A stretch of DNA of 64,000 nucleotides from Chiloscyllium plagiosum (lineage: Eukaryota): NCBI RefSeq assembly GCF_004010195.1, contig NC_057755.1, positions 1,043,306-1,107,305 on the forward strand, read 5' to 3'. The position numbers and the translations under genes were made by a program. Positions within the stretch are counted from its first letter, which is position 1. Each line of letters opens with the position of its first letter. The notes under the pieces are model-generated. The model was not told where the DNA came from, ran no database searches, and worked only from the letters and a program-made list of their open reading frames with translations. Of the stretch, positions 10,897-53,315 are shown piece after piece.

Positions 10897-10970
10897 GAAA
10901 GGCTTTGAGATTGTATCTCCTCGGTATTGAGTACAGAGAGATCGCCTGCACAAAGAGATTCAGACAGAAA

Positions 10971-12315: not shown

Positions 12316-12403
12316 CAGTGAGGCGATTAAATACTTAGACACACTCCTGAAGAACTGATTATCTAATCCCACACATCAAGGAGGTTGTGCTGCAACCATG
12401 AGA

Positions 12404-12810: not shown

Positions 12811-12968
12811 AAGAAAGTGAGTACTGCAAATGCTGGAGTTCAGAGTCGAGAGTGTGTTGCTGGAAAAACACAGCAGGTCATGTAGCATCTGAAGCAAGAG
12901 ATTCGATATTTCTGGCAAGAGCCCTTCATCAGGGCTTATTTCCTGCTCCTCGGATGCAGCCTGAACTT
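12811..12968 (-). mobile_element. Penelope-like terminal-repeat element with a degenerate hammerhead core
   Basis: Same family head; minus strand 12933-12904 reads CCTGATGA-AGGGC-TCTT-GCCA-GAAA-TATC; short inverted arm follows. Confidence 0.7.
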
Positions 12969-17300: not shown

Positions 17301-18062
17301 AGATGCAGCATTTTGGAATGGCAAACCTGTACACATAATGGCAAGATCCTGGGGAGTGTTGCTGAACAAAGAGACCTTGAAGTGCAGTTTCATAGTTCCT
17401 TGAAAGTGGAGTCAATGGTAGATCGGATAGTGAAGAAAGTGTTTGTTATGTGCTCCATTATTTTTCAGAGCATGGATTGTACGAGTTGTGAGGTCATGTT
17501 GCGGTCAGACAGGACATTGGTTAGTCCACCTTTGGAAAAAGTGTTTGTAATTCTGGTCGCCCTCCTGTCAGAAGGATGGTGTGAAACATGAAGGGGTTCA
17601 TAAGAAATTTAGAAAGATGTTGCCAGATTGGGACGGTTTGAGCGACAGAGGAAGTCTGAATAGGCTGGGTCTGTTTTTAATGGAGCGTTGGAGGCTGAGT
17701 GGTGATCTTATAGAACTTTGTAAAATCATGAGTGGTATGGAAAGGATAAATAGACAAACAATTTTACTCTGGGGTGGGAGGGTCCAAAGGTAGAGAGCAT
17801 AAGTTCAGGGTCACAGGATGTTAAAGGTACAGAATGGAAAATCTTTCTCATGCAACGGGCGGAGCATGTATAGAATGAACTGCCAGAGAAAGTGGTGGAG
17901 ACTGGAACAATTGCAACATTTCAAAATTAAACAGATGGGTAAATTATGAGAAAGGTTTAGAGGCATATGGGGGCAAATGGGATGATATTATTATAGAATA
18001 TCTGGTCAACCATGACGATTTGGACCAATGGGTCTGTTTCCTTGCTCTACACTTCTTTGACA
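14400..18062 (+). mobile_element. Near full-length old CR1 LINE in intron 1 of GPCR copy B (5'UTR, ORF1 with GDSL/SGNH esterase remnants, decayed ORF2)
   Basis: ORF1 remnants SSCRMWE (about 14800), KGDSLVSGTDRRFCG (15205-15250), GARIKD and VIVCIG; ORF2 RT remnants 16650-17900; CR1 3' end about 18020-18060; 5' boundary approximate. Confidence 0.85.
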
Positions 18063-18761
18063 CGATCTCCGTCTAGCATGCTAACAGCAGTTAAACAAAT
18101 ATTTCATCGTAAATGAATACCAACAATATGAATCTCAATTCCATTGTGGAAATCAATCCCCGTCATTTGTTTTCAATGATAGGTCCTTGTGCAAGGAGTA
18201 AACCGAGTTGATGTTTTGAATTCCTTGAGAAATATTCAGAGGAAGATGTTACAATGTAGAAAAATTGTATTAATTCTAATTCTCTCTCCATAGCTACCAC
18301 ACCTGTTGCGTTTCACCAGCTACATCTGTTTTATTTTCATATTTCTGGTATCCATAGTTCTTTTATTTATTTTATTAAAAAATTTCACTTCTCAGAAGTA
18401 ATTCTTAGAATTGTGGAATCTGACTGTACCAAAGAGGTCTGTTAGTCCATCAAGTCTGTGCTATCAATGCTGGACTATATATGGTCTCGTCCCAGATGAC
18501 TGTCAAAGTTTGAAACGTTTCCAACATCTGAAACCCTCCCAAGCACTGAATTATTAGAACCCGCACCATTACCTGGGTGAAAGTCTTTTTCACAAATGTC
18601 CTCCAATCTGTCTATGAGTCACCTTAAATATTATGCCCTTTTGCCACCTGCCAATTCCTTGTTCAACTTAGATTTGAAGATATTCTATTGCTCTCTTGGC
18701 AGACATGGACAATGATTGATCAGTGACTTCCGATTTGTATTTTAAATTCTGTCTCTTTCAG

Positions 18762-19636
18762 TTAATTTCCTGCTGATTTTGGTTCTCTCACGGGGAAAGT
18801 GTGGCCTCTCTAACTGCACAACCCGCTGCCTATTGGCTATGGCAATGTCGGATCTACTGTTCATTCTCACGAAGGTCATGCTATGGCATTGGAAAGAACT
18901 TTACTGCCAAGGCTGTTTCCTCACCATCACCCCTGTGTGCAGAACTGTCTTTTTCCTGATGCGTGTTGCCACAGACTGTTCTGTCTGGTTCACTCTTCTT
19001 TTCTCCTTTGATCGTTATGTGGCCATTTGCTGCCTGAAACTGAAGAGAAAATATTGGGTAGAAAAAGCCCAGGCTGTGGCTCTGGCTGCAACCAGCATTC
19101 TGGTCTGTTCAAAAAACATTCCCTTCTATTTTCGGAATAAACCTGCGTCAATAGTTGACAATGTTCCGAGGTATTGCCAGATAAAGTCAAGTTATTTTAC
19201 TGATCCCAGGTGGCTGGGCTTTAAGTGGTTTGATATAGTTTTCACCCCTTTCATCCCATTCGTGTTAATTCTGTTGATGAACATTCTGATGGTCAGGTAC
19301 ATTTTAATGGCTATTCGAGTCCGGAAGAGACTGAGGGGTCAGACGAAGGGAGAGAGTCACAAAGACACAGATATGGAGAACCGGAGGAATTCGGTGATTT
19401 CCCTCCTCGCCATATCCATCAGCCTCATACTTCTCTGGGTAGTGTACGGTGCCAACATCCTCTACTTTCGTATTAAAGCAGCACATCGTTGGTGGAACTG
19501 GCGTCTGATCAATTTCACGTGGGTCGGAGAATTGCTGAAGGATTTAAGCTGCAGCACGAACACATTATTTTATGCAGCGACTCTGCCCAAGTTCAGAGAC
19601 AAGTTCAGGAATGCGGTGCAGCAATTGGTCACATAA
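18762..19636 (+). CDS. GPR139/GPR142-like class A orphan GPCR copy B, coding exon 2 (313 aa with exon 1)
   Basis: Pyrimidine tract and acceptor tctgtctctttcag at 18761; uninterrupted frame NFLLILVLSRGKCGLS, TM2 LAMAMSDLL, TM3 FSFDRYVAICC, TM5 PFVLILLMNIL, TM6 RRNSVISLLAISISLILLW, TM7 SCSTNTLFYAATLPKFR; TAA at 19634-19636. Family-level call, not an orthology claim. Confidence 0.9.
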
Positions 19637-19874
19637 ATTCTTCACTTACAATGGAAAGATGATGGAAAAAGGCTGGAGGAATGATTCTAAATGATTGACT
19701 GGCTGTGAGTGATGTGTTCCGCTGGAACATTGGGTCTTCGCAGACTACCCTTTGGATGAGTGTTAAAGGCTGGCAAGAGGGGTCTCTGCTTTTCTCCTGC
19801 AGGGGAGGAGGGGTGGGACAGAAACAGCCGTTCCAGCACCATGACAATTGCCAGACTCTCTCTGTTCAGCTCGC

Positions 19875-19880
19875 AATAAA
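19875..19880 (+). terminator. Candidate polyadenylation signal of GPCR copy B
   Basis: AATAAA about 240 nt after the stop; also present in A (5626-5631) and D (54875-54880); reads AATAAT in C. Confidence 0.5.
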
Positions 19881-19999
19881 CATTTTATAACAGCAAGGAA
19901 AGGCTCCAGGTGTTGGTGATTCCCCTCATCTGAATTGGCTATTGGAGATTGAGAGAGGTTTGTGAGTCCACCTCCTGTCAACATCCTTCACAAGGATAT

Positions 20000-21350
20000 T
20001 GCTTTCTCTCTCTCTGCCTCGTTCCGTCTTTCTTTGTTCCTCTCCTCCTCTATCGTACTGTGCCTAATCTCTCAGCTTCTTGTTCAGCTTCTCGCTGTCT
20101 CTCTGTTTCTCTCACTCTTCGTGACCCTCCCTGTCTGTATCTTTTTCTCTCTCTCTCTCTGCCTGTTTTTCTGGCTGGCTGTCTGTCACCCTCTCTGCCT
20201 ATCCTTCTTTGTCTCTCTATCCCTCTCACTCTCTGTCTCTCCTTCGCGCTCTCTGTGTATTTTTTTCACATTGACCACGTCAGTCACAGATACAGCCAGA
20301 AATCCTTTGGCACATTACTGTTAGTAAGTCTGCTGAACTTTGATCATTTCCATTTCCTCTCCCTGTGGCTGTGAGGGAGGTGTGTTCATGTGTCTTCCGT
20401 TCAGTTTGTGAGGGTCTCTGTGTGTCTCTGTGTTGGGGAGGGGACCTCATTGCATTTATGGGGATCTCAGACTGTGTGTGTGTCTTTCGGTTTTTGTCGT
20501 CCCTGAGTGTGACACATTATGACTGTGTTTACGCATCTGAGAGTGGGTTTCCCTTTGTGCGTATTGGGAAGTATTTCTGTGATTTCGCATTCATGTCTTT
20601 ATGTGTTTGGGAATCTTATTCAGGCTGTATGAGAGTGTTTCCCTGAAGGTGAGTGTTTTATGTGGCTGTATTTAACTGCCTGTGTTTGAATGTGTGCATG
20701 TGTATGTTTCAGAAGTTTCTATAAGTTTTTGAAGGCTGGTGTCGGATGTCTCTTACTCTGAGTTCGTTTGTCGATGTGTGTAGGGGTGTGGCTGTGATTC
20801 TGTGTCTGTGTGGGGATGTGTTCCTATATCTAAGTATGAATGCATTTCTGTGAGTACGGGTATGTGTGCATTAGGTATGCACATGGGTGTGTTCCTTCTT
20901 CTGTCAGTCTGTCTGTACTTGTTATGGGCGTCTGTGTGTGTGTGTGTGTGGATTTGTTCCTTTCTCTCAGTATGACTGTATTTCGGTGTCTGTGGATGTG
21001 TGTGCATTCTGTCCGTACATAGGCGTGTTCCTTTGTGGTACATCATGTCTGTTTTTTTTCTGGCTGTCTGTGAGCACATGCACGTATGTGAGGGGTGTAC
21101 CTCCTTCTGTATTCCTGCGTGTGTTGTGAGGGTGTGAAATTTTATTGAATCTTCGTATAGGTGTGTTCTCACATTTCAATTTGACTGTGTTATTTTGCGA
21201 ATATTCATGTGTTTTTGTTTATCAATATGTTCCTATATCTCACTTTGACTGTATTTCTTTGTGTGGGTGTGTTTTTGTGTGCATGTGTGTGTGATGGTGT
21301 GGGTGTGTTTTTGTGTCCTTCTGGGTGTGGTTTTGCCACTGCCTGATCGT
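20000..21350. repeat. CT-rich then GT-rich low-complexity region
   Basis: Degenerate (CT)n at about 20000-20270 and degenerate (GT)n at about 20370-21350. Confidence 0.9.
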
Positions 21351-22609
21351 GAGACTGCCTCTCCTGAAAAAGGACCAGTGACCCCCTACATCACGTCATG
21401 GTGCACAGATTGCTCTCAATGGCCTATTTGTGGCAACCTGGGAAATATCTAAATATCAGTATCGGTACCTCCTGCACCCTAAGAGCTGAACTGTTGGTTC
21501 AGTTCCAGTACCTAAGTTTAATGAACGAATCAAGACGAAGAAAAAAACAGTGAAAGGCAGGATGCCCGTTCATTTGTCCACGTTTGAACCAAGGATGCAA
21601 TTTACAAATATTGTTTTCTTGTTGAAGGTGGTTGCGTTACTCTATAAATAATGTTACATATTGGATCATTAAGCCCATCGAGTCAGCTCTGTCATTTCAT
21701 CATGGAGGATATGTTTTTCCATTCTGCTCTTCTGCCTTCTCCCCAAAACTTTTGATTCTCTTCACAATCTGGAACACATATATCTCTATTTTTATACACT
21801 TGTTAAGGACCAGATTGGACCCTCTTAAAACATGTCAGAATGGTAGCCCAGACCCTAACTTTTCTACTTGCTTTGAACAAGTGTAGAGTGGATATTCCAT
21901 GAGTGACGGAGCTGATCAGCATTCCTCGGTTTTAAATAAAACGGGATTTATTTACAGATTACTGAATAGAACACAAACAATGGAGAACATAAAAAGAACA
22001 CATTAACCTAACTGAAAACCCAACAGATGATGCCAAATTAATGATATCTCCAAATTCCTGCAATAATCCTGTTCAGCGCCACATGTCAAAACGGGTCAAA
22101 TCAAACACAGGATCTTACAGGAGAGATGTCAGGGAGAGACTCAGCATGAAACAACTTCTTCCCTGTAGCTGTTTCTTTGACCATCAACCCAAAACAAAAA
22201 AAAAACTGACTGCTTGCTAACACCCAAACCAAACCAAACTAAATCAAATCAGAGGAAAGCTGAGCTGGAACAATTTGTCACTCCACTTCCATTGTATTTT
22301 CTGACTCGAAGAAGCGTTTTGCTGAGGCAGTGTCTGTTAGGTATCATGAAATTGGCCAGACAACACGTCCAAACTAGAAACCCCGGAACTGCTGCATTTG
22401 CAAACACTGTAAGAGCAAAAACAACAAGGATAACATAACCTTGTTAGAGGAACAGCACCATCATCACATCCAATATCCGGATCTCCACAGCCATCAGCAG
22501 CAATGATTCCCATGAATTAACCATCCTTTGGCTGAAGACATTTATCCTCAACTCACTTCCGAAGGTGGTCACTTCACTCTGAGGCTGTGCCCTCAGGTCT
22601 CCTATATGT

Positions 22610-23405
22610 CAAAAGAGCTTACAAGCAGAAGCTGAAGTGGGAGGACACGTCACCGAAGGCAGGCCAACGTTGATCTGAGGCTGTGAATGACAGTCTCTGG
22701 GACTGTTTGGAATTGGTGGACTGGACCGTGTTCAATTAATCAGCAGTAACCCTGCCTGAGTAACCACCACCGTCACGGACATCTTTAAAAAATGTATGGA
22801 AAACTGTATTGAAGTCGTCAATCCGAGAGTTCCCCAAGCATAGACCATCGGTGAACTACGTTATCCACTCTAAACTGAATACGAGACGAGCAATATTCAT
22901 GTGGGAAGAGCCAGACCTGTGCAGGGAATTCAGATCTAATCTCCACAGGGCCATAGCGAACGCTGATAGAGTAGTAGACCACATGAGAGGTCCGTACCTA
23001 TCAAACAGATTCCTGCCACCTATGGCAAGGACTAAATAATATTACAAGATGCAAAATGAAGCACAGCAAGATAGCAGACAAAGACAGTTCGCTCCCTGAG
23101 GCGTTCAATGCTTTCTCTGCTCGGGTTGAGCAGATACCAGTGGCACACTGACGCATTGCCCAACAGCCCCAGACATATCTGTTGCCTCGTTCGCTACTGC
23201 ACATGTCAGAGTGGTCTTCCTTAGGGTCAACCCAAGGAAAGCAACAGGCCTGGATGGATTCCCTGGCCGTACCCTTTTATCCTGTAGGGACCAACTGGCG
23301 GAGGTATTCACTAATATCTTCAATCTCTCCATCCAACAAGGTGAAGACCCCATCTTCTTCAAGAAGACAACCACCATCCCCATACCCAAGAAAGCACATG
23401 TGATG
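22610..23405 (+). mobile_element. Rex1/Babar-clade LINE fragment
   Basis: VNPRKATGLDGFPGRTLLSCRDQLAEVFTNIFNLS...FKKTTTIPIPKK fits the Rex1-type pre-RT region; paralog at 58315-59100. Confidence 0.8.
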
Positions 23406-23789
23406 TGTCAACTGGTCTTCCCACCTATTTTTGTGTTATCTGCGAATTTGGCAAAAGGACATTTACTTTCTTTCTGCAAGTCATTCATATATGCATTATT
23501 TCATATTTTAGGTGTATAATATATATTATGAATTGGTAAGTGTTGGAGCTGTTTGTGTTGCACAAATATTTTTTTGCATCAGAGCTGATTGTGTTTTCGT
23601 TATTTGTATTATTTTAATAAAAAGTGCTTCGAGCTTTGAACTGGAAACTGTTTGCTGAGAATAACGTGTGGCCTTTGAGACACCTTGTGATTAAAGAAAC
23701 AGACCAAACAACCTTTCTTTCTTTGTGAAGCCAGGCCTTGGGGATAATTGTCAGATGAATCTGGATTAAACGGGGCGCCCACGGGGAGA

Positions 23790-24455
23790 ATCGCCCTGAG
23801 GATGAGCAAATACTTTTATGCCAGTCTCAATGACACAATGTGCACAGACAGTGCGACCTCCCAGTTGTTCCTCTCTTCTATCATGGAGGTATGAGACGAC
23901 AGCAGATGGGAGAGGCTGTGTCAGCATTTGCCTCTGGAACAGCTGCCCAAGGCCGACAGACCCTTAGAAAAGAGTGCAATTTTCAGAAGTGATGGGTTAC
24001 ATCTGAGTTGTTTTCATCTCTGTGGAACTTGATTGGCCTGGACCTGCTGGAAGTAGACAATATTATGCTTCGATAATGTAGCCGTTGTGAATCCTACAGG
24101 AAAGTTACCATCCCTCTCATTTAAAATTAGAAGCAAGACAGGGAGGGACTGAAGACCGGTCTCACTGCTAAATGTATTTTACAGAATCCTGCCTGTGATT
24201 ATTTCCAACTAGTTCAGGTCTGCTCTGGGGTCAATGTTTCACCCCAACAAAATTTGTTCTGTACATTGCAGGATGATCTCTGAGAGCCTCATGCTCCTCA
24301 GTGATGTAATTGTGTACATGTGGAATAGTGAGTTGAGAAACCTGTCTTATCAGCATGAACCAGAAGGCCTTTGAAAGGAAATTGCACACCAACACCTGGG
24401 GCATGATCTCCAAAATTGGCTTTGGGGACGAGACCTGCACTGATCTGCACCAATA
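23790..24455 (+). mobile_element. Tx1/L1-clade LINE fragment, decayed
   Basis: Paralog of 59490-60165, which translates SDGLPAELFPSLWHLIGWDLLEV...RKGIIPLIY. Confidence 0.7.
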
Positions 24456-24479
24456 GCATTTCCTATACACTGGTAATGA

Positions 24480-31750: not shown

Positions 31751-32760
31751 ATGAAGAAATTGAGGGTTTGGTTTAGAAAAAGAAGGAAGCATATGTCACG
31801 GAGATACAGGATAGGTTGAGTGAATCCTTAGGAAGTAAAAAGACAGTAGGAGTATACTCAAGAGCGAAATCAGGAGGGCAAATAGGGAATCTGAGATAGC
31901 TTTGGCAGATATCAAAGGAGAATTCAAAGGGATAACATAAATACATTAAGGACAAAAGTGTAACTAAGGAGTGAATGGGAGTCCTCAAAGATCAGCAATG
32001 CAGCCAATGTGTGGAACGGCAGGAGGTGGTTGAAATACCACACAGGTTTTGTTTCATTTTTACTATGGAGAACGACATACAAAATACAGAATCTGGGGAA
32101 ACTGATGGTGACATATTGAAGAATGTCCATATTACAGAGTAGGAGGTGTCGGATGTCTTAAAATGCATACAGGTGGATAAATCCGCAGGACATGATCAGG
32201 TGTGTCGTCGAATTCAATGGGAAGTGAGCAAAGTGACTGGTGGGATCCTTGCTGAAATATTTGTCTCATTGACAGTCACAGGTGAGATGCTGGAAGACTG
32301 GAGGTTGTCTAACGTGGTGTCATTATTTAAGAAAGCTGGTAAATTAAATCCAGGGGACTACAGACTGGTGAGCTTAACATCTGTGGTGGGCAAATTGTTG
32401 GTGGGATTCCTGATGGATAGGATTTACATAAATTTGGAAAGGCAACGACTGTTTAAGGATATTCAGCGAGGCTTTGTGCATGATTTAGTTTTTTGAATAA
32501 GTAACAAAGAGGATTGATGAGGGCGGAATGGTGGACATGATCTATATACATTTCAGTAAGGCGGTCAATAAGTTTCCGCATGGAAGAGTGGTTAGCAAAG
32601 TTCGACCTCGTTGAATATAGGGTGAACTAGCCACTTGGATACAGAACGGGTTTGAAGGTCGAAGACAGAGTTTGGTGGCAGCGGATTGCTTTCCAGCCTG
32701 GAGGCTTGTGGTGTGCCAAAACGATCGGTGCTGGGTCCACTGTTTCTCTTTGTTCTTAAT
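31751..32760 (+). mobile_element. Old CR1 ORF2, middle fragment (host element continued)
   Basis: EDWRLSNVVSLFKK, GDYRLVSLTSVVGK and GVPKRSVLGPLF. Confidence 0.85.
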
Positions 32761-32807
32761 GATTTGTGGGACTTGGGCGTCGCTGACTGGCCAGTATTGA
32801 TATCACA

Positions 32808-33016
32808 GGAGAAAGTGAGGTCTGCAGATGCTGGAGATCAGAGCTGGAAATGTGTTGCTGGAAAAGCGCAGCAGGTCAGGCAGCATCCAGGGAACAGGAG
32901 AACCGACGTTTCGGGCATAAGCCCTTCCTGAAGAAGGGCTTATGCACGAAACGTCGATTCTCCTGTTCCCTGGATGCTGCCTGACCTGCTGCGTTTTTCC
33001 AGCAACACATTTCCAG
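32808..33016. mobile_element. Young fold-back Penelope-like element with TSD and hammerhead core
   Basis: 84-bp inverted arms 32844-32927 and 32933-33016 (3 mismatches counted by eye), 5-nt loop; direct repeat CCAGTATTGATATCACA at 32791-32807 and 33013-33029. Confidence 0.85.
32928..32958 (+). ncRNA. Minimal hammerhead ribozyme core (one stem II mismatch)
   Basis: CTGAAGA-A-GGGC-TTAT-GCAC-GAAA-CGTC; predicted cleavage after C32955. Confidence 0.55.
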
Positions 33017-33706
33017 TATTGATATCACATCCCAACTTGTCCTTGAGAAGGTGGTGGTGAGCTGCCTTTTTGAATCGATACAGTCCACTTGCTGTGTGTT
33101 TATCCAGGCAAATAGGGTTGTTCCACCATACTCCTGACTTGTGCCTTGTGGTAAGAATTTGTTCGGTCTGGAGGTGACTTGTTCACCACAGTCTCACTAG
33201 TCTCTGACTTGCTCTTGTCGCCACTGTGTTTATGCGGTGAGTCGAGTTGAGCTTCTGGTCAATGGCAACCCCAAGGATGTTGACAGTGGGAGATTCAGTG
33301 ATGGCAATACCGTTGAATGTCAAGGGGCAGTGGTTACAATGTCTCATACTGACGATGGTCATTTTATTGCATGTGTGTGGTGCGAGTGTTACTTGCCACT
33401 TGACAGCGCAAACCTGGATATTGTACAGATCGGTTGCATTTGAGCACGAACTGCTTCAATGTCTCAGGAGTCGCTAACGGTTCGGAAAACGGTGCAATCA
33501 TCGGCCAACAGCCTCTCTTCTGACCTTGTGATAGAGAGAAAGACATTGATGAAGCAGATGAAGATTGTTGGGCCGAGGACGCTACCCTGAGGGACTCCTG
33601 CAGAGATCTCCTGGAACTGAGATGACTGACCCACAATCATCTTTCATCATTCATATAAATGACTTGGATTTGAACACAGGAGGTACAGTTAGCTTTCAGG
33701 TGACAC

Positions 33707-35572
33707 CATAGAACATAAAACATAGAACAATACAGCACAGAACAGGCCCTTCGGCCCACGATGTTGTGCCGAACATTTGTCCGAGCTTAAGCACTCATTC
33801 AGGTACCTATCCAATTGCCGCTTCAAGGTCACCAATGATTCTGACTCTGCCACACCCACAGGCAGCGCATTCCACGCCCGCACCACTGTCTGGGTAAAGA
33901 ACCTACCCCTGACGTTCCCTCTATACCTTCCACTCTTCACCTTAAATTTATGTCCCCTTGTAACACTCTGTTGTACCCTGGGAAAACGTTTCTGACTGTC
34001 TACTCTATCTATTCCTCTGATCATCTTATAAACCTCTATCAAGTCACCCCTCATCCTTCACCGTTCCAATGAGAAAAGGCCTAGCACGCTCAACCTATCT
34101 TCGTACGACCTATTCTCCATTCCAGGCAACATCCTGGTAAATCTTCTCTGCACCCTCTCCAAAGCTTCCACATCTTTCCGAAAGTGAGGCGACCAGAACT
34201 GCACACAGTACTCCAAATGTGGCCTAACCAAGGTCCTGTACAGCTGCAACATCACTTCATGACTCTTGAATTCAATCCCTCTGCTAATGAACGCTAATAC
34301 ACCATGGGCCTTCTTACAAGCTCTATCCACCTGAGTGGTAACTTTCAAAGATCTATCAACATAGACCCCAAGATCTCTCTGCTCCTCCACCTTACTAAGA
34401 ACCCTACCGTTAACCCTGTATTCCGCATTCTTATTTGTCCTTCCAAAATGGACAATCTCACACTTGACAGGGTTGAACTCCATCTGCCACTCCTCAGCCA
34501 AGCTCTGCATCATATCTAAATCCCTTTGCAGCCGACAATAGCCCTCCTCACTATCCACACCTCGACCAATCTTCGTATCATCTGTAAATTTACTGACCCA
34601 CCCTTCGACTCCCCCTTCCAAGTCATTAATAAAAATTACAAACAGCAGAGGACCAAGAACTGATCCCTGCAGAACTCCACTTGTAACTGGGCTCCAGGCT
34701 GAATATTTACCATCTACCACCACTATCTGACTTCGACCGGTTAGCCAGTTTTCTATCCAACTGGCCAAATTTCCCACTATCCCCTGCCTCCTGACTTTCC
34801 ACATAAGCCTACCATGGGGAACCTTATCAAATGCCTTACTAAAATCCATGTACACTACATCCACTGCTCTACCCTCATCCACATGCTTGGTCACCTCCTC
34901 AAAGAATTCAATAAGACTTGTAAGGCAAAACCTACCCCTCACAAATCCGTGCTGGCTGTACCTAATCAAACAGTGCCCTTCCAGATACTCATAAATCCTA
35001 TCCCTCGGTACCCTTTCCATTACTTTGCCTACCACCGAACTAAGACTAACTGGCCTGTAATTCCCGGAGTTATCCCTATTCCCTTTTTTGAACAGGGGCA
35101 CAACATTCGCAACTCTCCAATCCCCTGGTACCACCGCCGTTGACAGTGAAGATGAAAAGATCATTGCCAACGGCTCTGCAATTTCCTCTCTTGCTTCCCA
35201 CATAATCCTAGGATATATATTTCCCGTCAGGCCCGGGGAACTTGTCTAACCTCAAGTTTTTCAAAATGCCCAACACATCTTCCTTCCTAACAAGTATCTC
35301 TTCTACCTTACCAGTCCGTTTCACACTCTCCTCTTCAACAATACGGTCCCTCTCATTTGTAAATACTGAAGAAAACTACTCATTCAAGACCTCTCCTATC
35401 TCTTCCGACTCAATACACAGTCTCCCACAACTGTCCTTGATCGGACCTAGCCTTGTTCTCGTCATTTTCATGTTTCTCACATACGCATATAATGCCTTGG
35501 GGTTATCCTTGATCCTACCCGCCAAAGAGTTTTCATGCCCTCTCTTAGCTCTCCTAATCCCTTTCTTCAGCT
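33707..35572 (-). mobile_element. Young 5'-truncated CR1 LINE with a long intact RT frame
   Basis: ORF 34058-35203 (381 aa) has QHGFVRGR, YMDFSKAFDKVPH, GVLQGSVLGP and KFTDDTK; frameshift into 33689-34054; (GTTCTAT)n-type tail at 33707-33730; splits the host CR1 between gacac and caaaatt. Confidence 0.96.
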
Positions 35573-36470
35573 CCAAAATTGTAGTTGCAGTGGACAGTGA
35601 AGAATTTTCCCTCAGTGTGCAATTGGATTTTGATCATGTGGTCCAATGGGCTGAGGAGTGTCAGATGGAGTTAAATTTACTTAAATGTGCGGTGCTGCAA
35701 TTTGGAAAGGCAAATCAGGGCAGGACGCACACAATTAATGGTAAGGTCCTGGGGAATGTTGCTGGACATAGAGAACTTGGAGTGCAGGTTTATAGTTCCT
35801 TGAAAGTGGTGTCTTAGATGGATAGCATAGTGAAGAAGGCATTCGGTATGCTCTCCTGTATTGGTAAGAGCATTGAGTATAAGAGCTGGGAGGACATGAT
35901 GTGGCTGTCCAGGATATTGTTCAGGCCACTTTTGAAATATCGTGTGCATTTCTATTTTTCCTCCAAAAGGGAGGGCGTTGTGAGACTTGAGAAAAGATTC
36001 CAAAAATACTTACAAAGATGTTGCCAGTGTTTGAGGTTTTGAGCCACAGGGAGACGCTGAATAGCCAGATGATACTTTTCCCGGAGATCTGAGGACCCAG
36101 AGGTGACCTTATGAAAGTTACAATCTCATGAGGGGCATCGACAGTGAAAATAGACAAAGTTTGTTCCCTAGAGTGAGGGTGTCCAGAACTAGAGGACATA
36201 GGTTTCGGGTCAGAGGGGAAAATTTTAAAAGGACTGAAGGGCAACTTTTACGCGCAGAGCGTGGTACATGTCTTTAGTACACTGTCAGAGGGATTATGGA
36301 GGCTGGTGCAATTACAATGTGTAAAATATATTCAATTGAATGTTCAATTGAATAAAAACTGTTGAGAGGGAAATGGGAGCAAAGGAGACTAAACTAATTT
36401 AGGATATCTGGTCAGCATGGATGATACGGGCAAAAGGATCCGTTTCCATGCTGTGTATCTGTATGACTCC
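35573..36470 (+). mobile_element. Old CR1 ORF2, 3' fragment and 3' end (host resumed)
   Basis: QWAEECQMELN and VKKAFGMLSCIGKSIEYKS; CR1 3' end at about 36410-36470. Confidence 0.88.
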
Positions 36471-37329
36471 ACCTATTCCTTGTCTGCAAAGATGAGTTCA
36501 ACAAATATTCCATGTTAGATGAATATCAACACTTTAAATCTCAATTGCTGTTTTGAAATGAATCCCTGTTTTTTGCTTGCAATGATAGAGTCTTATGTGG
36601 GGAGGTACCTGAGGTGATGTTTTGAGTTCAGTGACCCATATTCTGATGAACAGTGATTCTATTCACTCTGTTTCTCTCCACACAAATGCTGACATACCTG
36701 TTGGGTTTTGCCAGATATATCTGATTCGGTTTCACGTTTATAGTATTCAAATTCCTTTCATTTATTTCACTAAAATGATTTACTTCCCAACCTGCCTCCC
36801 AGAAGGAATTTTAAGAATCAGAGAATCGGACTGTGCAGAAGAGATTCTCTGTTCCATCCAGTTTGTGCTGTCAAAGTGACACGAAATCTACACTCGTCCC
36901 AGCTTCCAGCACTAAACTCATGCTCTCGAATAATATGACACTTGAAGTGGTCACCCAGGGAGGTTTATTAAAACTTTGTGAGGTTTCCTGATTCCATGAC
37001 GCTCCCAGGCACTGAATTACCAGACCGCCATCATTCTCTGGGTGAAAACCCCTTCCTCAGATCCCCTCTAATCCTCTTCCTTTTCACCTTGAAAGATATG
37101 CGCCCACCTATCACAACCATCTGTCGAATTCCTACCTACACTTGGAAAAATGGAGGACTGAGCAGCTTCGAAATGGGACAGGCCACTGGAGCTGTCCTCG
37201 TCAAACTTGACATCTGAACACTCCCAGCTGACCCAGTTAGGTGCTAAGATCTTCCATTGCTCTCTAGTCAGAACGGGCAATGTTTGATCAGTAATTTCCA
37301 ATTTCCATTTTGCATTCTGTCTCTTTCAA

Positions 37330-38188
37330 TTAAGTTCCTGGTGATTTTGGTCCTCCACATGCAAGGTGCGATCTCTAACTGGACAACGCACTGCCCAGTG
37401 GCTGTGGCAACGTCGGATCTACTGTTCATTTTCACGAAGAACATATTGTGGCAACTCGAATTCTTTTAATTCCCAAGGTGTTTCCTGGACCTTACCCCTG
37501 TGTACAGTTCTGTCTTTGTCCTGGTCAGTCAACCACAGACTGTTCCACCTGATTCACTGTCCTTTTCTACATTGATCGTTTTGTGGCCAATTGCTGCCTG
37601 AAAATGAAGAGAAAATATTGGACAGAAAAAACCTTCACTGTGACTCTCGTGACAACTGGAATTCTGCTCTGTTCAAAAAATACTCGCTTCCATTTTTGGT
37701 GTAAACCTATGAAGATAATTGACAATGTTCCCTGGTTGTGCCGAACAATGTCAAGTTATTTTACTGATCCCAGATGGCTGGGATTTACGTGTTTTAATAT
37801 CATTTTAACCACATTCATCCCATTCGTGTTAATTCTGTTGATGAATAAACTGAAGGTCAGGTACATTTTAGTGACGAGTCTAGTCCTCAAGGGCCTAAGG
37901 GGTCAGAGGAACGGATGGAGTCGCAAAGACACAGAGATTGAGTGCCGGAGGACGTCAGTGATTTACCTCCTCACTATACCCATCAGATTCATACTTGTGT
38001 GGTTAGTATATGGTGGAGGTATCTTATACTTTGGCATCAAAGGAACGAATGTAGTAAAGTACAAATATCTAGTTGATTTTAAGTCTATCGGAGAAATGCT
38101 GAAGGATTTCAGCCGCAGCACGAACATATTATTTTATGCAGTGACTCGGCCCAAGTTCAGAGCGAAGTTCAGGAATGTGGTCACGTAA
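37330..38188 (+). pseudogene. GPR139-like GPCR pseudogene copy C (divergent subtype)
   Basis: Acceptor mutated (ctttcaa instead of ctttcag); frameshifts and a stop in TM1-TM3; the 3' frame 37583-38188 still reads FTDPRWLGF, PFVLILLMN and STNILFYAVTRPKFR; no exon 1 found upstream. Confidence 0.9.
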
Positions 38189-38928
38189 ATTCTTCACTTA
38201 ATGACTCAGCAAAACAATTGAGAGAGCTCCAGAGGCAGCAGCAGTATTCCCAGTGCAGGAATTGCAAACGCACGGCCAGGATTCCATCAGCACAATCACA
38301 TGGATCTGAGTATAACACCCAGTGGTGAATGGGAAGGAGGGGTAACAGGATGGATCACCACTCAACGCGCTCACGAACACGCTGCTATCCATGATTGACT
38401 GACAGATTGTCACATACGGGGACACACAGGCCATGAGCAGCAGGCGGCCATTCAGCCCTTCGAGTCTGGTCCTACTGACATACCAGAAGATCGCGGCTCC
38501 TTGAGTACCATTCACATACACCCCACGCACCCACCACCAAAAACCTGAAAAAGAATGTAACCACCTCCGCCTTCAACAATACTGAAAGATGTAACAAAGG
38601 GACATCAGGTCAGGGAGCAAGAGGGACTGCCAGTGGCAGAGCAGGATGGAACGGGGCTGCAGGCGTGATTAGAAATGTCGGACTGGCTGTGAGTGATGGG
38701 TTTCGCTGGAACATTGGGTCTTCATGGACTGCCCTGTGGATGAGTGTTAAAGACTGGAAAGATAGGTCTCCACATTTCCCCTGCAGAGGAGGAGGAGGAG
38801 ATCAGAAACTGTCCCTCCTGCACCATGATGTTTGTCAGACTCTCTCTGTTCAGCTCACAATAATCACTTCATTCCAACAAGAGAAAGCTTGTGATCCCCT
38901 CACCTGAATTGGTTATTATTTTATTCAG

Positions 38929-39235
38929 AGAGAAAGTGAAGACTGCAGATGCTGGAGATCAGAGCTGAAAATGTGTTGCTGGAAAAGCGCAACAGGTCAG
39001 GCAGCATTCAATGAGCTGGAGAATCGACGTTTCGGGCATGAGCCCTTCTTCAGGGATGAGGAAAATGTGCCAAGCAGGCTAAGATAAAAGGTCGGGAGGA
39101 GGGACTTGGGGGAGGGGCGTTGGAAATGCGATAGGTGGAAGGAGGTTAAGGTGGGGGTGGGGGCGGAGAGGTCAGGAAGAAGATTGCAGGTTATGAAGAT
39201 GGTGCTGAGTTCGAGGGTTGGGACTGAGACAAGGT
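38929..39235 (-). mobile_element. Penelope-like element terminal repeat plus adjacent body
   Basis: Same family head as 32808; not folded back, continues into a purine-rich (+ strand) body; contains the best hammerhead core. Confidence 0.75.
39020..39058 (-). ncRNA. Minimal type I hammerhead ribozyme, core intact
   Basis: Minus strand CUGAAGA-A-GGGC-UCAU-GCCC-GAAA-CGUC with a perfect stem II, palindromic ACGU stem III and GUC site (C at 39026); stem I pairing is weak. Confidence 0.7.
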
Positions 39236-39289
39236 ATGATTTCAGTTTTTTTTATGTGTGAGGATCTGGGTGTGATTCTGGGTCGATGT

Positions 39290-42225: not shown

Positions 42226-45151
42226 AATGCACATTTTTGCACGTTTCATACAGTATATATAATATATACAACTCATTCTTGTTTCGACCTGTTTGTGTAT
42301 AAATATTGTTTTGCATCGGAACTGATCCTGTTTACATGTAAATATTCATTTGCATTGGAACCATTTATGTTTATTAATACATATTGATTTGTACAGGAAC
42401 TCTTTATTTATAAATATAAATATTGTTGTATTTGTGAACTGTTCGTATTTATATTTAAATCCTGTTTTGTTTTCGAGCTGTTCACGCTCTTTCATAAACA
42501 TTTTTGTGTCTTGGAACCTTTACAGATGATATGCAAACATTGCCATGCACTGCAGCTGTACAAGTTAATAGATGAAATATCACGCTTTGCAAGTGTTTAT
42601 GTGTGCATAGGTATTGTCATGTATTGGAACTGTTCGTGTTTATGTGTACTGTTCTGTAATGGAACTGTTCATGTTTGTGAATAAATATTGTTGTGTATTG
42701 GAGCTGTTCCTTTTGTCTATAAATATCAGTGTATGTTGAGGCTGTGCCTGTCTCCGAACTCATCAGCAACACTGTCACTGACAATGCAGTGTGAATGCTG
42801 AGTTCCTCCTGTGCTTTGGAATGGATCTGCAGTCCCATTGTCTGCTGGAGGGGCAGCTGCACAGAGCAGCATCCGTCACATTTTAGCGGTTATGGGAAAT
42901 AAATAGGCAGGGACATCTGATTTCTCATTATGTTCGGGGAACAATAACTGAAGAGCCCCGGGGAAGAGAGAGAGTTAAATAGAGATAGAGTAGGCGTTAA
43001 AGATTGTAATAGACAGAGTAGTCAGTTCTTTTGTCTTCTGCTGCACTGCTTCGATGCAAAGTGTACCCTTCTTCAGATGAGATGACCAAAACTGGACCTC
43101 CTGCCCCAGGAGTGGGTATGTCCAATCTCCACAGAATTGCAGACCTGCGCCATTCCCTCCTGAGCTCAAGTCAATGATCTCCAAAGTAGCATTTGCCTGT
43201 CCCATCTCCTGCTGAACCTTCATGTTGGATTCCCGTGACTCAGGAACAAGGACAGAGAGAGCCACTTTGGTGTTCAAAACTTCTCAATCCCTATAATGCA
43301 TCAAAAATTCTTTCAGTTTATTTCTCCTCTAACAAAATCGCTAACATCTCATTTATTTATGTTTCATCTGTCATGTTATTGCTCAGACACTCCATACTCT
43401 CCACACTCAGAAAACAACTATGCACACCACAATGCAATCATCGATCTCTGCAATATTACATCTGCAGTGATCTACAGTAAGCAGGTTAGCAGATTGAATC
43501 TGACCCAATCATGGAGCATTGTTTGAAATATAAAGACGAATTTCTGGAATATTGAGATGCTGAATACCTGAATCAATGAGAGACTGCTGTCAAAGGCAAT
43601 GAATTTGTAAATAAAGGGTGATTAATGACAGGATGCCGGCCTCTGAAGAGTGATTTCGCAAAGAGACATTGTTGGTTTAAATATGCACTAGGACTACGGG
43701 CTCTTCACTTCCAAACTTTCCCATTCCTGCTCCTACCCAACCCCAGAAAATTCCACACCCCAAGTTATGCTGAAATTATTCTGTGACATTCTCATCACTC
43801 GGCATTGTTGAGAAAATGTACAATCCTGGATTCTGAACTGAAATGAAAGAACAATGCCTCCCATTTCTCTACATTATATTGGTCAGACTATTTTCTGCTC
43901 ACTCACTCACTGAGACTACCTTTCCCCTGTTCTGCGTTCCTATGTACTCCTTGCCTTTTACAGTCCCAAATAACATTATGCTATCAACAAATGTCACACA
44001 TGATTCCATCCTCTCAGCCATCAATAGTGATTATAAACGGCTGTGTCAGGACAAATGATCCTTTTTCCATTCACTAATACCAGCGCGACAACATGAAGAT
44101 GACACATTATTCTTGATCTCTGGTTTCTGTCTATTATCAGTCCTCACACCAAGTCCCATTTCCCTATCACGACAGGTCTCAAGGACAACAATCACACCTG
44201 CTCAGATATTGCCAAACGTTGACATTTCTGCATCTTTGTGTATGCAAATCCCTCATTGATCTCACTCCACCATCTCGCTTGAAGCTGTTCCATTCCATGA
44301 TCAGTCAGATCTTTTAGGTTTCTTCTCTGTATATGTGCAGTACAATGTAGTGAACAGAGAATACCACATCCCCATACACTGCTGCACAGATCGTGTGTGT
44401 CTAAGAGACAGCTCTGAAACATGTCCAGGGCACTGTTATCCTGGGAGGAGGATCTGTATTGATCGGAACTTATGTAACCTCCGAGGTGACTTTTTTTACC
44501 TGTTTCAATTTTTGCCTGAATTGGAGAAGTTTTATTTGATTCAGAAGCTATATCAGCACAGAGTGAGGAATTCAATCGTGATGTGGGATTTATTAAAACC
44601 TACAATATGTCGTTGATATTAACTAACTATCATCCCGTCAGAGAACAGGCGCTGATAACCAGGGAAGACACAAACCAGTGTTGAGGAGAACATTTCTCAC
44701 AGACATATTCAACAACTGGAATTTCAATTCCAAATGATCAAAGTCAGGAGAAGGACGACCCTGTATTTAATTGAGATTTCATCGTTGGTTAGATGGTGTT
44801 GGGTTTACAAAGCTGGTACACAGGAGGGCACAGTAGTTCAGTGATTAGCCCTGCTGCCTCACAGAGCCAGCAGGTTGTTCTGGGTGGGATACTCTTTGAG
44901 GATCGGTGTGTACTCGATGGGCTGAATGGCCTGATTCCACATTGTAAAGATTCTATTATTTTATTCAACGTGCATTTTCCAATGTTTGCTATTGACCGAT
45001 TGAGATTTGTATCATCCAATAAATGTCAGTTCTAATAATACACTATGACAACTGGGAGTTTAGTCACTACTGTCACCTGTTTGTTCAAATTCTTAAATAA
45101 TTGAATTGAACCACATTGTAATGTAACATTCTCCCAGGCAACGTCAGCAGG

Positions 45152-45158
45152 TATAAAT
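45152..45158 (+). promoter_or_regulatory. Candidate TATA box of GPCR copy D
   Basis: TATAAAT at the same spacing from the ATG as in copy B. Confidence 0.5.
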
Positions 45159-45232
45159 GAAAGGCTTTGAGATTGTGTCACCTCGGTATTGAGTACAGAA
45201 AGATCACCTGCACAGAAGTATTCAGGCAGAAA

Positions 45233-45299
45233 ATGCCGTTCTCATTTGGCCATTTGCGGGCAATATTTTACACGACCATTCCGTTTGTAACAAGTCCTG
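45233..45299 (+). pseudogene. GPCR copy D exon 1 (MPFSFGHLRAIFYTTIPFVTSP plus G), itself intact
   Basis: 67 nt, donor G|GTAAGT at 45300; the partner exon 2 is disabled. Confidence 0.8.
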
Positions 45300-46687
45300 G
45301 TAAGTGCCTTGCAACATTGAATTTATGTGAAACTGGCTGAGGATTCTCTGCAGATTCACTCTGTTACTGATAATGATGCATGGGCATATTGTGCCCCAAA
45401 GTCACACAGTGGCAGAAGATCAGTAATTTAGTCTCAGATTACAGACACCCCTTGGAATCCCCATCATCGCAGATTCCGCAGGAACTGTCTGCGAATTTAT
45501 TCATCTCTTCTGGGAAATTCCAGAATCATCTCCATTTCAATTGGAGACTACAGAGAATTTCGATGGAATTGAGAAAATGAATCACTTTGGAAATTATACG
45601 CGGTAGTATTTTTAAGTAGAGAGTACAAAATCATTCAGTTTGTTTGTTTGTTTGTTTCTGTTTTTTGTTTTGAGTGAATAAGCAAGGGGCTTCTCTGATG
45701 ATCTGAAGTTAATAGCTAACTTGAAGTTATTTCTGTAATCACAGAAAGTTGTTTTAAAAATTACGTTTGGGATTTGACTATATGCTGAATGGTTTTGTGC
45801 ATGAGTGAACCTTTGTTACTTTTGATGCTTGCAACCCAGCATGATATTAATGGAGCCTGAAAGGTATGTTGGAGCGTTCTGGAATTTGTGATTATGGAAG
45901 AAAGCCGTAACTGAGGAAGCATAACTTTCACTTCTTTCATTTCATCATTTTCTCTAGTTCCTGTAAGACCCTGATTGGATGTGTAGATCAGCGCTCATGC
46001 GAAGGAAATGAAAGCTTTAGTCAATTCCATTGCCTTGGAATGAAGATCTTGTTTTGGTCCCAGACAGAAGTGTTGACACAAAAAAAAAGTTATGGAGAGA
46101 TTGTTTATAGCTGAGTACGTTGACATTCAGGTATGTGGAAGCTCCAAGAAGAAATTTACTGCAGTTCCAGTTTAGAAGTGGCTGTCACAAGTCATTCAAC
46201 CAAGTGATAGATACAGGGAGTCCGGTGTGAGTATCACGTATGGATTGTTTTATTGGGAACGGCACTGGGATTCGTGTTTTATATGATATATAGATGTTAT
46301 GTCCTTTTATGCCATTTATGCATTGTTTTGAGGTTAAAGGGAATTATACATTTATTCTGTGTTCATTGCCTTTGAATCTGCATTATAAGTACGTAGTTTT
46401 GTTTATTCTATTTTGTCGTCAGTTCTTTTGTGAGAAATTTCTGTTTTGTTGTGGAAGCAATATTTGCAGCATTGTGTGTTTACGATTCAACAAGACATCC
46501 CTTTGTTAAATCAATACAAAAGAGGTTGAAATCCATCAAGCTGGGTTTCTATCGATGATCTGGCTAGTTCTGTAATTAATCAGCTGGTATCAGAACAGAA
46601 GCGAGGCGATTAAATACTTAGACACACTCCTGAGGAACGAATAAACTAATCCCACATTTCAAGTAGGTTGTGCCGCAACTATGAGGC

Positions 46688-46886
46688 AATGAGTCTGCAG
46701 ATACTGAAGATCAGAGTTGAGAGTGTATTGCTGGAAAAGTACAGCAGGTCAGGGAGCATTCGAGGCGCAGGAATATCGACGTTTCAGCCCACAGTCCTCT
46801 TTAAGGGCTCCGGCCCAAAAAGTCGATTTTACTGTTCCTTACATGCTGCCTGACCTTCTGTGCTTTTCTAGCAATGCACTCTCAAC
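46688..46886. mobile_element. Fold-back Penelope-like element (paralog of 12404-12576)
   Basis: Inverted arms about 46716-46780 and 46822-46886; longer centre than in the paralog. Confidence 0.72.
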
Positions 46887-47119
46887 TGTGCCCCAACTAT
46901 ATCCTTCTAGATCCATTATATGCTCTAGATCCTGATCAGACATCCACGCTGAGATGTAATTCCATATTATTACTCACAATTGTACTACTCTCACTCTGAG
47001 CCACAGCCAACGCAAAATAAATTTTCTCACCACCTGCCAGACCTGTAACTCTGGAACTAAATGAGACACTGGGTTGCTCATACATATGCAGTTTAGTGCA
47101 CAGTTCTGGTCATCTCCGA

Positions 47120-47560
47120 GAAGAAAGTGAGTACTGCAGATGCTGGAGTTCAGAGTCGAGAGTGTGTTGCTGGAAAAACATAGTCAGAAACTTTTTCCCC
47201 GGGTACAAGAGAGTGTTACAAGGGGACATAAATTTAAGGTGAAGGGTGGAAGGTATAGGGGAGATGTCAGGGGTGGGTTCTTTACCCAGGGAGTGGTGGG
47301 AGCATGGAATGCGCTGCCTGTGGGAGTGGTAGAGTCAGAATCTTTGGTGACCTTTAAGCGGCAATTGGATAGGTACATGGATGGGTGCTTAAGCTAGGAC
47401 AAATGTTCGGCACAACATCGTGGGCCGAAGGGCCTGTTCTGTGCTGTATTGTTCTATGTTCTATGTTCTATGTTCTATGTCATGTGGCATTCGAAGCAGG
47501 CGATTCAACATTTCGGGCAAAAGGTCTTATTCTCCTGCTCCTCGGATGCAGCCTGACCTT
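47120..47560. mobile_element. Penelope-like element (paralog of 12811-12968) interrupted by a CR1 3' end
   Basis: Head at 47120-47179; remainder at 47479-47560. Confidence 0.7.
47180..47478 (+). mobile_element. Young CR1 3' end with (GTTCTAT)4 tail
   Basis: Highly similar to the reverse complement of 33707-34000; absent from the paralog at about 12870. Confidence 0.93.
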
Positions 47561-48959
47561 TTTGTCATCATCCAGCAGTGAGGACAGAATTGCTGTACTG
47601 AGAGTACAGACGAGATTTACAACAATGGTCTTCCTATGTGGAAATTACTGCAATATTGAGGAAAGATGCATAAGGTAGTATCATTTTCCCTGAACAGAGG
47701 TGCATGAGATTTGACATGATTTGGATGTACAAAATCATCAGGGTGTGAATTGGAAACATGTCTCCCCGAACGCAGAACCATTTACCAGGAGACACAGCCT
47801 GAACAGAATTGATGGAAGGATTATCAAGGACATGAGGTCTACCATTTCATTGAGAATATGATGGTGCAACTGGAATTCACTGTCGAGTTTTAATGGTGGC
47901 TTGAGGTGACCAAACTTAACTAATTAAAATGAAATTTGCAACTGCAAGTAAAGTGTAGAAATCTTCAACGCTGTGTACCAGGTGCTGGAAAGTGAGATCA
48001 GCACAGGTCGTTAGTTTATCAATTGATGCAGACTTGAATGGCCTGTTTCAGTGCATCACTTTCATACATTTTTGTGGGATTTGTAGAAAGACTGAGGAGT
48101 GCTAAAGTGAATTTGCTTGGGGGGTTTGGGGGAAGTTAAATGGCCTGTTTCTGAATTGTCCATTTCAACCACTGGAACACTGTGGATTGTTAAAGTGAAT
48201 TCCAGTGGGCTGTGGCTACTTTCCAGTTGTACGTTATAGAAGTGTTTGTGGGTTCATATTCTTCTAATGTAAAAAGCAACTTGACATGGGGGGAAGAATA
48301 TTAACTGAGGGTCAAACGTAAGAATGTATCAATTCATTACTTTAATATTCATTACATTGTTTAGTTGTTTCATTATAATAGAATGATTTTATAAAAGAAG
48401 TTTATGAAATCTTGTACTATCGATGAACTGCTGAGTACTCGTATTATCAATTTAAACGTTAATTACCCCGACATGATTAGAACATAATAGAGAGTCAGAG
48501 AGAACTGATTTTTATCATACGATATTTTATTATTGGAGCTGCCACATTCAGTAAATGCAGTAGTGAACTGTCTGCTCTGTTTTGCATTGTGTAGTTCATT
48601 CATAAAATATCAATAAGCACATTCCAAAACGTTTTGATTCAGATAATGCAGGGAATGCAGTAAAAAGTTCACATCTCCCTCTTTGCATTTTACATTATTT
48701 GCTGACTGAAACCAAATTAGATCATTTCCGAAACTTGACAATGAATTGTTCACTTTCCAATACAAACTATTAGGGATTCAATGCATTAACAGATCTTCAG
48801 TTTATCATCACAGAGAAGATTCAGATCGTGGTTCGCACCTTTAATGATGAAACAAATCTTTTCAGATCTGTTAGCATTGGCCGTCAAATAATCACATCTT
48901 CTCAAGTGCAACAACTCATGCTTTTGTAATATAGTGCCCAGACGATTCCAGGTAATCCT

Positions 48960-51900: not shown

Positions 51901-53315
51901 CGCTATTTAAGAAAGGTGGTAAGGAAAACTCCGCGAACTATAGACAGGTGAGCCTGACATTGATGGTGGGTGAGTTCTTGGAGGGAGATCCTGATCGACA
52001 GGATTTACATGTACCCTCTATTTGGATAGGCAAGTACTAATTAATGGTTGTCAACATGGCTTTGCATGTGGCAAATATGTCTAACGAACTTTATTAAGCT
52101 TTTTAAAGAAGTAACGAAGAGGATTGATGAGGTCAGAGTGGTGGATGTGATCTCAATAGACTTCAGCAAGGAGTTTGACAAGGTTCCTCATGGTAGACTG
52201 TCAGCATGATTATACCACATGCAATAGAGGGAGAACTAGCTATTTGGACGCAGAACCTTCTCGAAAATAGAATACAGACTGTGGTCAGAGAGGTTGCTAT
52301 TCAGACTGGAGGCCTGTGACCAGTGGTGTCTTACGAAAATGGGTGCTTAATCGCTTAGTTGTGTCGTTTATGTAAATGATTTCGATGTGAATATGGGAGG
52401 TATGGTTACTAAGTTTGCAAATGTCACTAAAATTGGAAGGGTAGCAGATAGCGAAGAAAGTTACCTCAGTGTACAACGGGATATTGATCAGATAGGCTAA
52501 TGGGCCGAGGATTTGCAAATGGAGTTTAATTTGGATAAATGGGAGAATCTGCATTTTGGAACGGCAAATCAGGGCATGTCCTGTACACTTAATGGCAAGA
52601 TCCTCGAGAGTGTTACTGAACAAAGAGACTTTGGAGTGCAATTTTATAGTTCCTTGAAAGTGGAGTCTTAGGTAGATAGGATAGTGAAGAAGGTGCTCGT
52701 TATGTTCTCTATTATTGTTCAGAGCATTGATTATAGGAGTTGTGTTGTCATGTTGTGGCCAGACAGTGCAATGGTTAGTCCACTTTTTGAAAATGTGTGT
52801 GCAATTCTGGTCTTCCCCCTGTTAGAAGGTTGGTGTGAAACATGAAAGGCTTCATAAGAAATTTAGATGAATGTTGCCAGGTTAGAAAGATTGAGTGACA
52901 GGGAAAGGCAGAATAGGCTGGCTTTGTTTCCAATGGAGCGCTGGAGACTGAGGGGTAATCTTATAGAAGTTTGTAAAATCAAGAGGCGTATGAAAAGGAT
53001 ATATAGACAAACACGTTTTCCTCAGGGGTGGAGGAGTCCATAGGTAGAGAGCATAGGTTCAGGGTCAGAAGAGGTAAAATGTACCGAATGGAAAACCTTT
53101 CTCATCAAAGTGTAGTCCACGTTTAGAATGAACTGCCAGAGGAATTGGTGGAGACTGGTAAAATTGCAACATTTCAACATTAAGTTGAGTAAATTATGGG
53201 AAAGGTTTAGAGAGGTATGGGGAACAAATGGGACGATGTTGTTATAGAATATCTGGTCAACCATGACGATTTGGACCAATGGGTCTGTTTCATTGTTCTA
53301 CGCTTCTTTGACTCT
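48960..53315 (+). mobile_element. Near full-length old CR1 in intron 1 of GPCR copy D
   Basis: Colinear with 14480-18060; CTSCRM at about 49300; retains an endonuclease segment deleted in copy B; small CR1 3'-end insertion at about 50918-51081. Confidence 0.85.

Follow-up and report, generated by a model that had tools for sequence, protein, structure and literature searches.

A hammerhead-bearing palindrome in Chiloscyllium plagiosum as a likely by-product of Penelope-like insertion

How does a palindrome of about 200 bp, with a hammerhead ribozyme motif at its apex, come to lie between direct repeats in the genome of a cartilaginous fish? A preliminary description of this locus proposed either an inversion formed during Penelope-type insertion or a non-autonomous hairpin element, and these answers predict different things about related copies. 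Here, we examine the insert within its window (the whole analysed stretch of 64,000 nucleotides from Chiloscyllium plagiosum) and survey the repeat family to which its arms belong. The insert consists of two head-to-head truncated copies of the hammerhead end of a high-copy repeat, likely left by a single aborted insertion of a Penelope-like element (PLE).

The palindromic insert and the identical 17-bp repeats that flank it are real (Table 1). The insert comprises 205 bp (32808-33012), the two direct repeats agree at 17 of 17 positions, and none of 300 random windows gave an equally good pair in the same search. The arms pair over 84 nt, as initially described, and the roughly three mismatches noted at that time are exactly three (32914/32946, 32903/32957 and 32866/32994; 81/84 positions complementary), while the 5-nt loop at 32928-32932 reads CTGAA. 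Overlooked at first was a left arm that is longer by 36 nucleotides of family sequence, which find no partner in the right arm. The tetranucleotide CCAG forms both the last four nucleotides of the right arm and the first four of the right repeat, and the target-site duplication (TSD) is therefore given as 13-17 bp; the same range was stated originally and is explained by this overlap. At the apex, TTC pairs with GAA at 32933-32935; sequences of the family, both reads and contigs, begin to match the right arm at 32925 and have body sequence ahead of it. Read directly, the loop is sense sequence and continuous with the tail-less arm. Both arms run past the predicted hammerhead cut site.

Table 1. 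Features of the insert, its host repeat and the comparison copies (window coordinates)
Feature	Position	Strand	Remark
Left TSD copy, 17 bp, part of the host repeat	32791-32807	+	Identical to 33013-33029
Tail of 36 nt without partner (40 nt when CCAG counts as TSD); outer end is the family's distal terminus	32808-32843	-	
Left arm, inverted copy of the family terminal repeat; 5 nt too short for a complete hammerhead core	32844-32927	-	
TTC, 3-nt overlap at the inversion joint; readable as left-arm end or right-arm start	32925-32927	+	
Minimal type I hammerhead motif	32928-32955	+	Read in the sequence; features as in PMC4209133
Right arm, tail-less sense copy of the terminal repeat; last 4 nt also in the right TSD	32933-33016	+	
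Right TSD copy	33013-33029	+	17/17 to the left copy
Host: decayed RT-bearing (LINE-like) repeat; insert seemingly near its 3' end	33030-33643	-	
Copy D, single orientation, intact helix II, runs upstream into the body (upstream end approximate)	38929-39240	-	
Copy B, an older insertion, head-to-head, 204 bp, tailed, TSD of 14 bp	46683-46886	.	
Copy C, older head-to-head insertion, 28-nt right arm, loop on the tail-bearing arm	12808-12966	.	

The surrounding host repeat has a frame broken by stops and frameshifts; its match to RVT_1 (33467-33643, E 3.5e-6, 27.3 bits) falls under the Pfam cut-off of 29.6, and the repeat is presumably a LINE. Many other copies of it match the segment 33030-33095, and copies elsewhere show the uninterrupted state with a single copy of the duplicated 17-mer. 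The loose-end consensuses of runs X9 and X10 (340/427 records) traverse a single 17-mer that by eye is 12/17 alike to the duplicated one. Passage of the host repeat through one 17-mer copy in other genomic copies, together with the identical TSD, upholds the view that the unit arrived in a single event. In run X2 one contig skips the interval between 32785 and 33019 and has 12 letters in its place, a net difference of 221 bases against the 222 expected for the insert plus one repeat; it was considered as an orthologous empty site and rejected, since it represents another, diverged host-repeat copy. No orthologous empty site occurs among the 15 joints listed of 612. Another RT-bearing frame lies nearby at 34061-35245. 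Of the three proteins scanned from the window, the other match was to a rhodopsin-family receptor frame at 18746-19633, and the third protein gave none.

The loop was proposed to be the CUGAA of a ribozyme core whose remainder lies on the right arm, and this reading stands. The core comprises CUGAAGA (32928-32934), the first five nucleotides of which make up the hairpin loop, an extra A at 32935, helix II (32936-32947), GAAA (32948-32951) and CGUC (32952-32955), with a palindromic ACGU and a predicted cut after C32955. The features given for the minimal metazoan PLE hammerheads are present, namely the CUGANGA and GAAA boxes, the extra base 9/10.1, G10.1-C11.1, the palindromic 15.2-16.2 and a helix III without a loop (PMC4209133). 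The focal motif differs from those hammerheads in a 4-bp helix II that carries a private mismatch (G32937-A32946), in a helix I of ~2 bp and in its confinement within a long hairpin. Neither CUGANGA nor a complete core was found when the unit was read on its minus strand. Neighbouring hammerheads on opposite strands were already noted in PMC4209133. Rfam returned nothing at gathering score over the whole window, and none of the 11 weak matches over the unit is to a hammerhead family; the assignment as a ribozyme thus comes from the motif itself. Eight of these 11 are microRNA models below their own thresholds and were set aside as generic hairpin matches.

At 32946 the family has C, with 95-97% of the depth in each of the four runs, and the helix II mismatch is thus private to the focal copy. 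The mismatches at 32903 and 32946 deviate from family letters held by 95-98% of the depth, and at the third, 32994, the left-arm letter is carried by six of the seven other arms in the window; for these reasons, the arms were probably identical at insertion. Since the change at 32946 breaks helix II, the hammerhead of this copy is predicted to be inactive, and it is probably a passenger in a probably inert insert. The RNA fold of the insert strand, computed as the initial description had proposed, is a stable hairpin (-188.5 kcal/mol, z = -25.9; 0/200 shuffles as stable). Pair probabilities of helix II are predicted at <1e-11 in the full unit and <=0.34 in the right arm alone, compared to 0.95-0.99 in copy D, and enforcing the ribozyme fold is predicted to cost 26 kcal/mol. 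The hairpin and the ribozyme fold had been called mutually exclusive, which prediction bears out; yet this exclusiveness implies no switch, as a private mutation damages the ribozyme. A hairpin/ribozyme switch was accordingly ruled out by the broken helix II and the cost of the ribozyme fold.

The window contains four independent insertions of the family once paralogues are merged. Three of them are head-to-head, their centres and right-arm lengths differ, and all four end within ~2 nt of the family's shared tail terminus. The focal arms are 88-91% like copy D (left arm, 91%, 108/119) and 75-84% like the arms of B and C; B and C are old, and their lower likeness is thus partly decay. By eye, the body of copy D resembles the loose-end consensus of the family; it ends within ~190 nt of the hammerhead. 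Copy B has a TSD of 13/14 (0/300 random windows as good) and a tail of ~33-34 nt, and its segmental paralogue at 12400-12576 is without 28 nt of the centre. Copy C, whose paralogue at 47119-47558 is split by a later insertion, has a weak TSD (11/14; 25/300 random windows as good), a tail much longer than 30-40 nt and, by eye, an apex with a 4-bp stem and a 5-nt loop that belongs to the arm with the tail. No TSD better than chance was found for copy C, copy D or the B paralogue at 12400. The exact focal apex occurs once in the 64-kb window, <=3 mismatches allowed.

Reads and contigs with 85% likeness to 32550-33300 were collected from runs X2, X9 and X10 (three organisms) and from the RNA run X21. 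Matching contigs numbered 68,247, 77,300 and 86,091 in the three organisms, to which 3,093 RNA reads are added; these figures are not copy numbers. The tail end proved to be a sharp terminus common to the family: loose ends before 32807/32808 amount to 1230+506 (X2), 1470+666 (X10) and 610+180 (X21), with 673 at 32807 in X9, and the flanks are unrelated and AT-rich-looking (flank agreement 0.33-0.45). A faint consensus before 32807 raises the possibility that a minority of copies extends past the tail end into the element, like partial tandems. At the other side, contigs continue into body sequence before the hammerhead (405 in X2, 339 in X9), and this body resembles the one seen in copy D. 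Among the RNA reads, 292 likewise extend upstream of 32925 into the body, while the depth at 32946 is 531.

Inversion joints within the family number 612 in all, and among the 15 listed, 13 link left-arm ends at 32830-32889 to 32925-32932; several of the 15 have unknown letters at the join, and with a palindromic reference some joints may be artefacts. A contig that reads straight through the exact focal apex gives no joint and hence stands outside this count. Fixed or variable inversion points had been named as the check that separates a mobile unit from an insertion by-product, and they vary, both among the 15 joints listed of 612 and in the centres of the window copies. Variable joints and differing centres therefore favour an insertion by-product over a fixed mobile hairpin. 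As separate observations, 13 contigs each in X2 and X10 carry a joint 32807/32840 on opposite strands, in which the tail end is fused to a tail-less end; such joints suggest that units can be nested or chained and that a proximal end recurs around the equivalents of 33016-33021. One contig of X10 (organism C) joins 32959 to 32925 with 13 letters between, possibly a close tandem pair of hammerheads.

These features fit published PLE structure. Typical PLE copies combine an inverted, 5'-truncated copy with a one-sided tail of 30-40 bp and a TSD (PMC3846280, PMC8557442, PMC8969392), and the EN+ PLE units with inverted pLTR and tail share with the focal insert the head-to-head copy, the one-sided extension, the overlap at the joint and a TSD around the whole unit (PMC3846280; PMC8557442). 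The focal insert differs from those units in measuring only 205 bp and in lacking coding sequence, with the parent frame not seen, and its TSD of 13-17 bp exceeds the 8-10 bp of rotifer PLEs (PMC3846280). Five of six features of PLE insertion are found here, i.e., a head-to-head truncated copy, a one-sided tail, a hammerhead, a TSD and a fixed 3' end with variable 5' truncation; the sixth is a link to RT and GIY-YIG coding sequence. A six-frame scan of the window with PLE protein motifs gave no match to an RT/GIY-YIG frame, and the missing link between such a frame and the family counts against the preferred reading. The insert is most likely one more instance of an already described product of PLE insertion, and the originally suggested inversion during Penelope-type insertion finds support in these structures and in biochemical work (PMC3846280, PMC8557442, PMC11167929).

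In that work, both strands of the target were cut and extended by a purified PLE protein, which accepted uncleaved RNA and began synthesis at two internal sites, one at each boundary of the tail (PMC11167929). The element concerned, PAc (Poseidon) of Anolis carolinensis, studied in vitro, likewise has two termini about one tail apart downstream of the hammerhead; further points of likeness are arms from uncleaved RNA and AT-rich-looking flanks at the ends of the focal family. PAc starts without target homology and prefers ATT, whereas the focal proximal end has a 4-nt match and the inferred nicks are not at ATT (PMC11167929). The accessible part of that source does not itself show how palindromes form.

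We hold with considerable confidence that the insert is a by-product of PLE insertion, whichever route was taken, and we lean, with less assurance, towards a route with two primers. The element's endonuclease would nick the two target strands 17 nt apart. The 3' end of the top strand would then prime reverse transcription at the distal start site, the tail end, and that of the bottom strand ~36 nt further in, aided by the CCAG match, although this match at the proximal end may be incidental. Both cDNAs would halt near the 5' edge of the uncleaved hammerhead and join via the 3-nt TTC/GAA overlap, and fill-in would yield the palindrome, the one-sided tail and the TSD; three private substitutions would have been gained after insertion. 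The polarity of the loop, taken together with the tail, suggests that both nicked strands primed reverse transcription. In LINE-1 twin priming, both nicked strands prime and leave an inversion inside a TSD, as we propose here. Twin priming joins different stretches of the RNA, whereas both focal arms copy the same 84 nt.

The mirror arm might instead have arisen within the same PLE by-product by self-priming, with the target-primed cDNA folding back on a micro-palindrome at the 5' edge of the hammerhead, and the tail traceable to a brief second priming event, to template switching or to an inversion of the loop at a later stage. Self-priming has been proposed for palindromic inverted joints (PMC3846280), the focal apex provides a ready 3-bp stem and 5-nt loop, as does copy C with a 4-bp stem and a 5-nt loop, and the loop of copy C has the opposite polarity. 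We regard this route as a serious rival, yet as the less likely one for the focal unit, where the loop belongs to the tail-less arm and a single fold-back cannot give both loop and tail without an extra step: folding back of one tail-bearing cDNA fails because the loop is continuous with the tail-less arm, and folding back of a tail-less cDNA fails because the tail cannot come from it. The minority letters common to both arms (32890/32970, 32894/32966 and 32847/33013) fit one arm copied from the other and in this respect count against two-strand priming, but they are also expected from two RNAs of one source copy. G32847 faces the first TSD base, where the family letter is A in 77% (X2), 98% (X9) and 96% (X10) of the depth. 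The minority letter at 32847/33013 could be a subfamily letter or have been copied from the target; since non-A letters make up 23% of the depth in the window's own organism, a subfamily letter suffices.

A discrete non-autonomous hairpin element, i.e., a palindromic source whose transcript is inserted whole by PLE proteins acting in trans, is disfavoured, and we regard it as improbable. It would account for the close match of copy B, which at 204 bp is almost as long as the focal unit (205 bp) and has its apex and arm ends within a few nt of the focal ones. Mobilisation in trans is known for PLE terminal repeats (PMC3846280), and there are reports of short PLE derivatives that are non-autonomous (bioRxiv 10.64898/2026.07.22.740005). 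Against it, joints vary among the 15 listed of 612, centres and arm ends differ among the window copies, copy C being centred elsewhere, many reads run into body sequence, and the focal arms are nearer to the single-orientation copy D than to the other palindromes. Moreover, the left end is the exact family terminus, which the 5' end of a transcript need not reproduce, and an 84-bp duplex would presumably bury protein-binding sites. We read the resemblance of copy B as shared hot spots, because the sequence at the 5' edge of the hammerhead is a small palindrome, while a conserved unit would also give it. Bolder, and in our view quite unlikely, is the idea that this edge is a programmed stop-and-join site, where same-apex hairpins of ~205 bp arise in distinct subfamilies (the focal unit, B) and a part of them moves again as a palindromic, non-autonomous element in its own right. 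If it were true, a genome with thousands of them would be an in vivo record of PLE two-strand priming and a standing source of dsRNA. Animal non-LTR retrozymes resemble the focal insert as short, non-coding, hammerhead-bearing kin of PLE terminal repeats, but they consist of tandem units, whereas the insert is a single head-to-head unit with one complete core (bioRxiv 10.64898/2026.07.22.740005); no tandem hammerhead-bearing neighbour was found in 32300-33600.

Long inverted arms with a direct repeat on either side also recall a MITE or foldback DNA transposon, which we deem the least credible origin of all. The pattern originally named as diagnostic of DNA transposons, a short TSD with terminal inverted repeats, is absent: the TSD measures 17 bp, and the inverted repeats are not terminal, as 36-40 nt at the left end are unpaired. 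Single-orientation copies with one defined end exist (copy D and family reads), and a hammerhead core occupies the apex. The TSDs of cut-and-paste elements are usually shorter than 17 bp, which likewise counts against such an origin. Only marginally less implausible is a palindrome produced by rearrangement after insertion or by an assembly error. Palindromes are hard to assemble, and no contig among those listed spans the unit; still, the arms differ at three private positions, the TSD is exact, and the layout is common to B and C. In addition, contig 9 of X2 follows 32550-32830 with two differences and thus reaches 23 nt into the insert, fewer than the 31 letters that the bridging rule demands, and the source of the assembly may itself be related to X2.

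The long hairpin was also suggested as a substrate for Dicer or ADAR. This is plausible for any transcribed 84-bp duplex, but the RNA run ties neither a transcript nor an edit to the locus. A search of sequencing runs listed no RNA run that contains the sequence. The sample covered ~2% of run X21; 97% of its reads extend into other loci, 74 of 3,093 are >=99% alike, and the depth over 32550-32705 is 0-1. This sample (~2% of the run) held no sign of a transcript of the focal locus, by which silence is not implied. Places with A>G and T>C changes number 13 and 22 in the RNA run compared to 6-9 and 9 in the DNA runs. This excess was rejected as evidence of A-to-I editing at the focal locus, given that 97% of the RNA reads go to other loci, and the strongest case, T>C at 32994, was discounted because C is the family letter there. 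The RNA excess of A>G and T>C across the family could reflect editing of transcripts elsewhere or a bias in assigning reads to arms.

Beyond the window and the runs, a pattern scan for the tail motif in metagenome and viral contigs and one for the core motif in viral and prokaryote genome contigs each found 0 copies, and 14 metagenome loci were dropped, all being chance matches of 20-26 nt. A literature search, with subscription journals, repeat databases and preprint supplements outside its scope, found no published description of the family or of such stubs in cartilaginous fish. As a single locus, a probably inert stub within an older repeat carries little weight. It is a clean example, with a legible tail and TSD as well as readable junction overlaps and loop polarity, and such stubs bear on the origin of inverted PLE copies by two-strand priming or self-priming, a choice that the available portions of PMC3846280 and PMC11167929 leave open. 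For genome annotation, they are mistakable for MITEs or microRNA hairpins, as the sub-threshold Rfam matches to microRNA models illustrate.

The wider window has a duplicated architecture. A segmental duplication of ~15 kb (8787-24472 vs 43017-60187, 80-86% identity) contains the paralogues of copies B and C, and further partial copies of the block lie at 1837-7790 and 35575-38917. The insertion that splits the paralogue of copy C is a younger repeat fragment at 47182-47472, 92% identical to 33707-33997. Frames of rhodopsin-family receptors are clustered at 18746-19636, 37553-38188, ~53929-54942 and 4934-5679. The piece at 37553-38188 gave no Pfam match and other members of the cluster look broken, while the frame from 18746 matches 7tm_1 with an E value of 1.6e-17.
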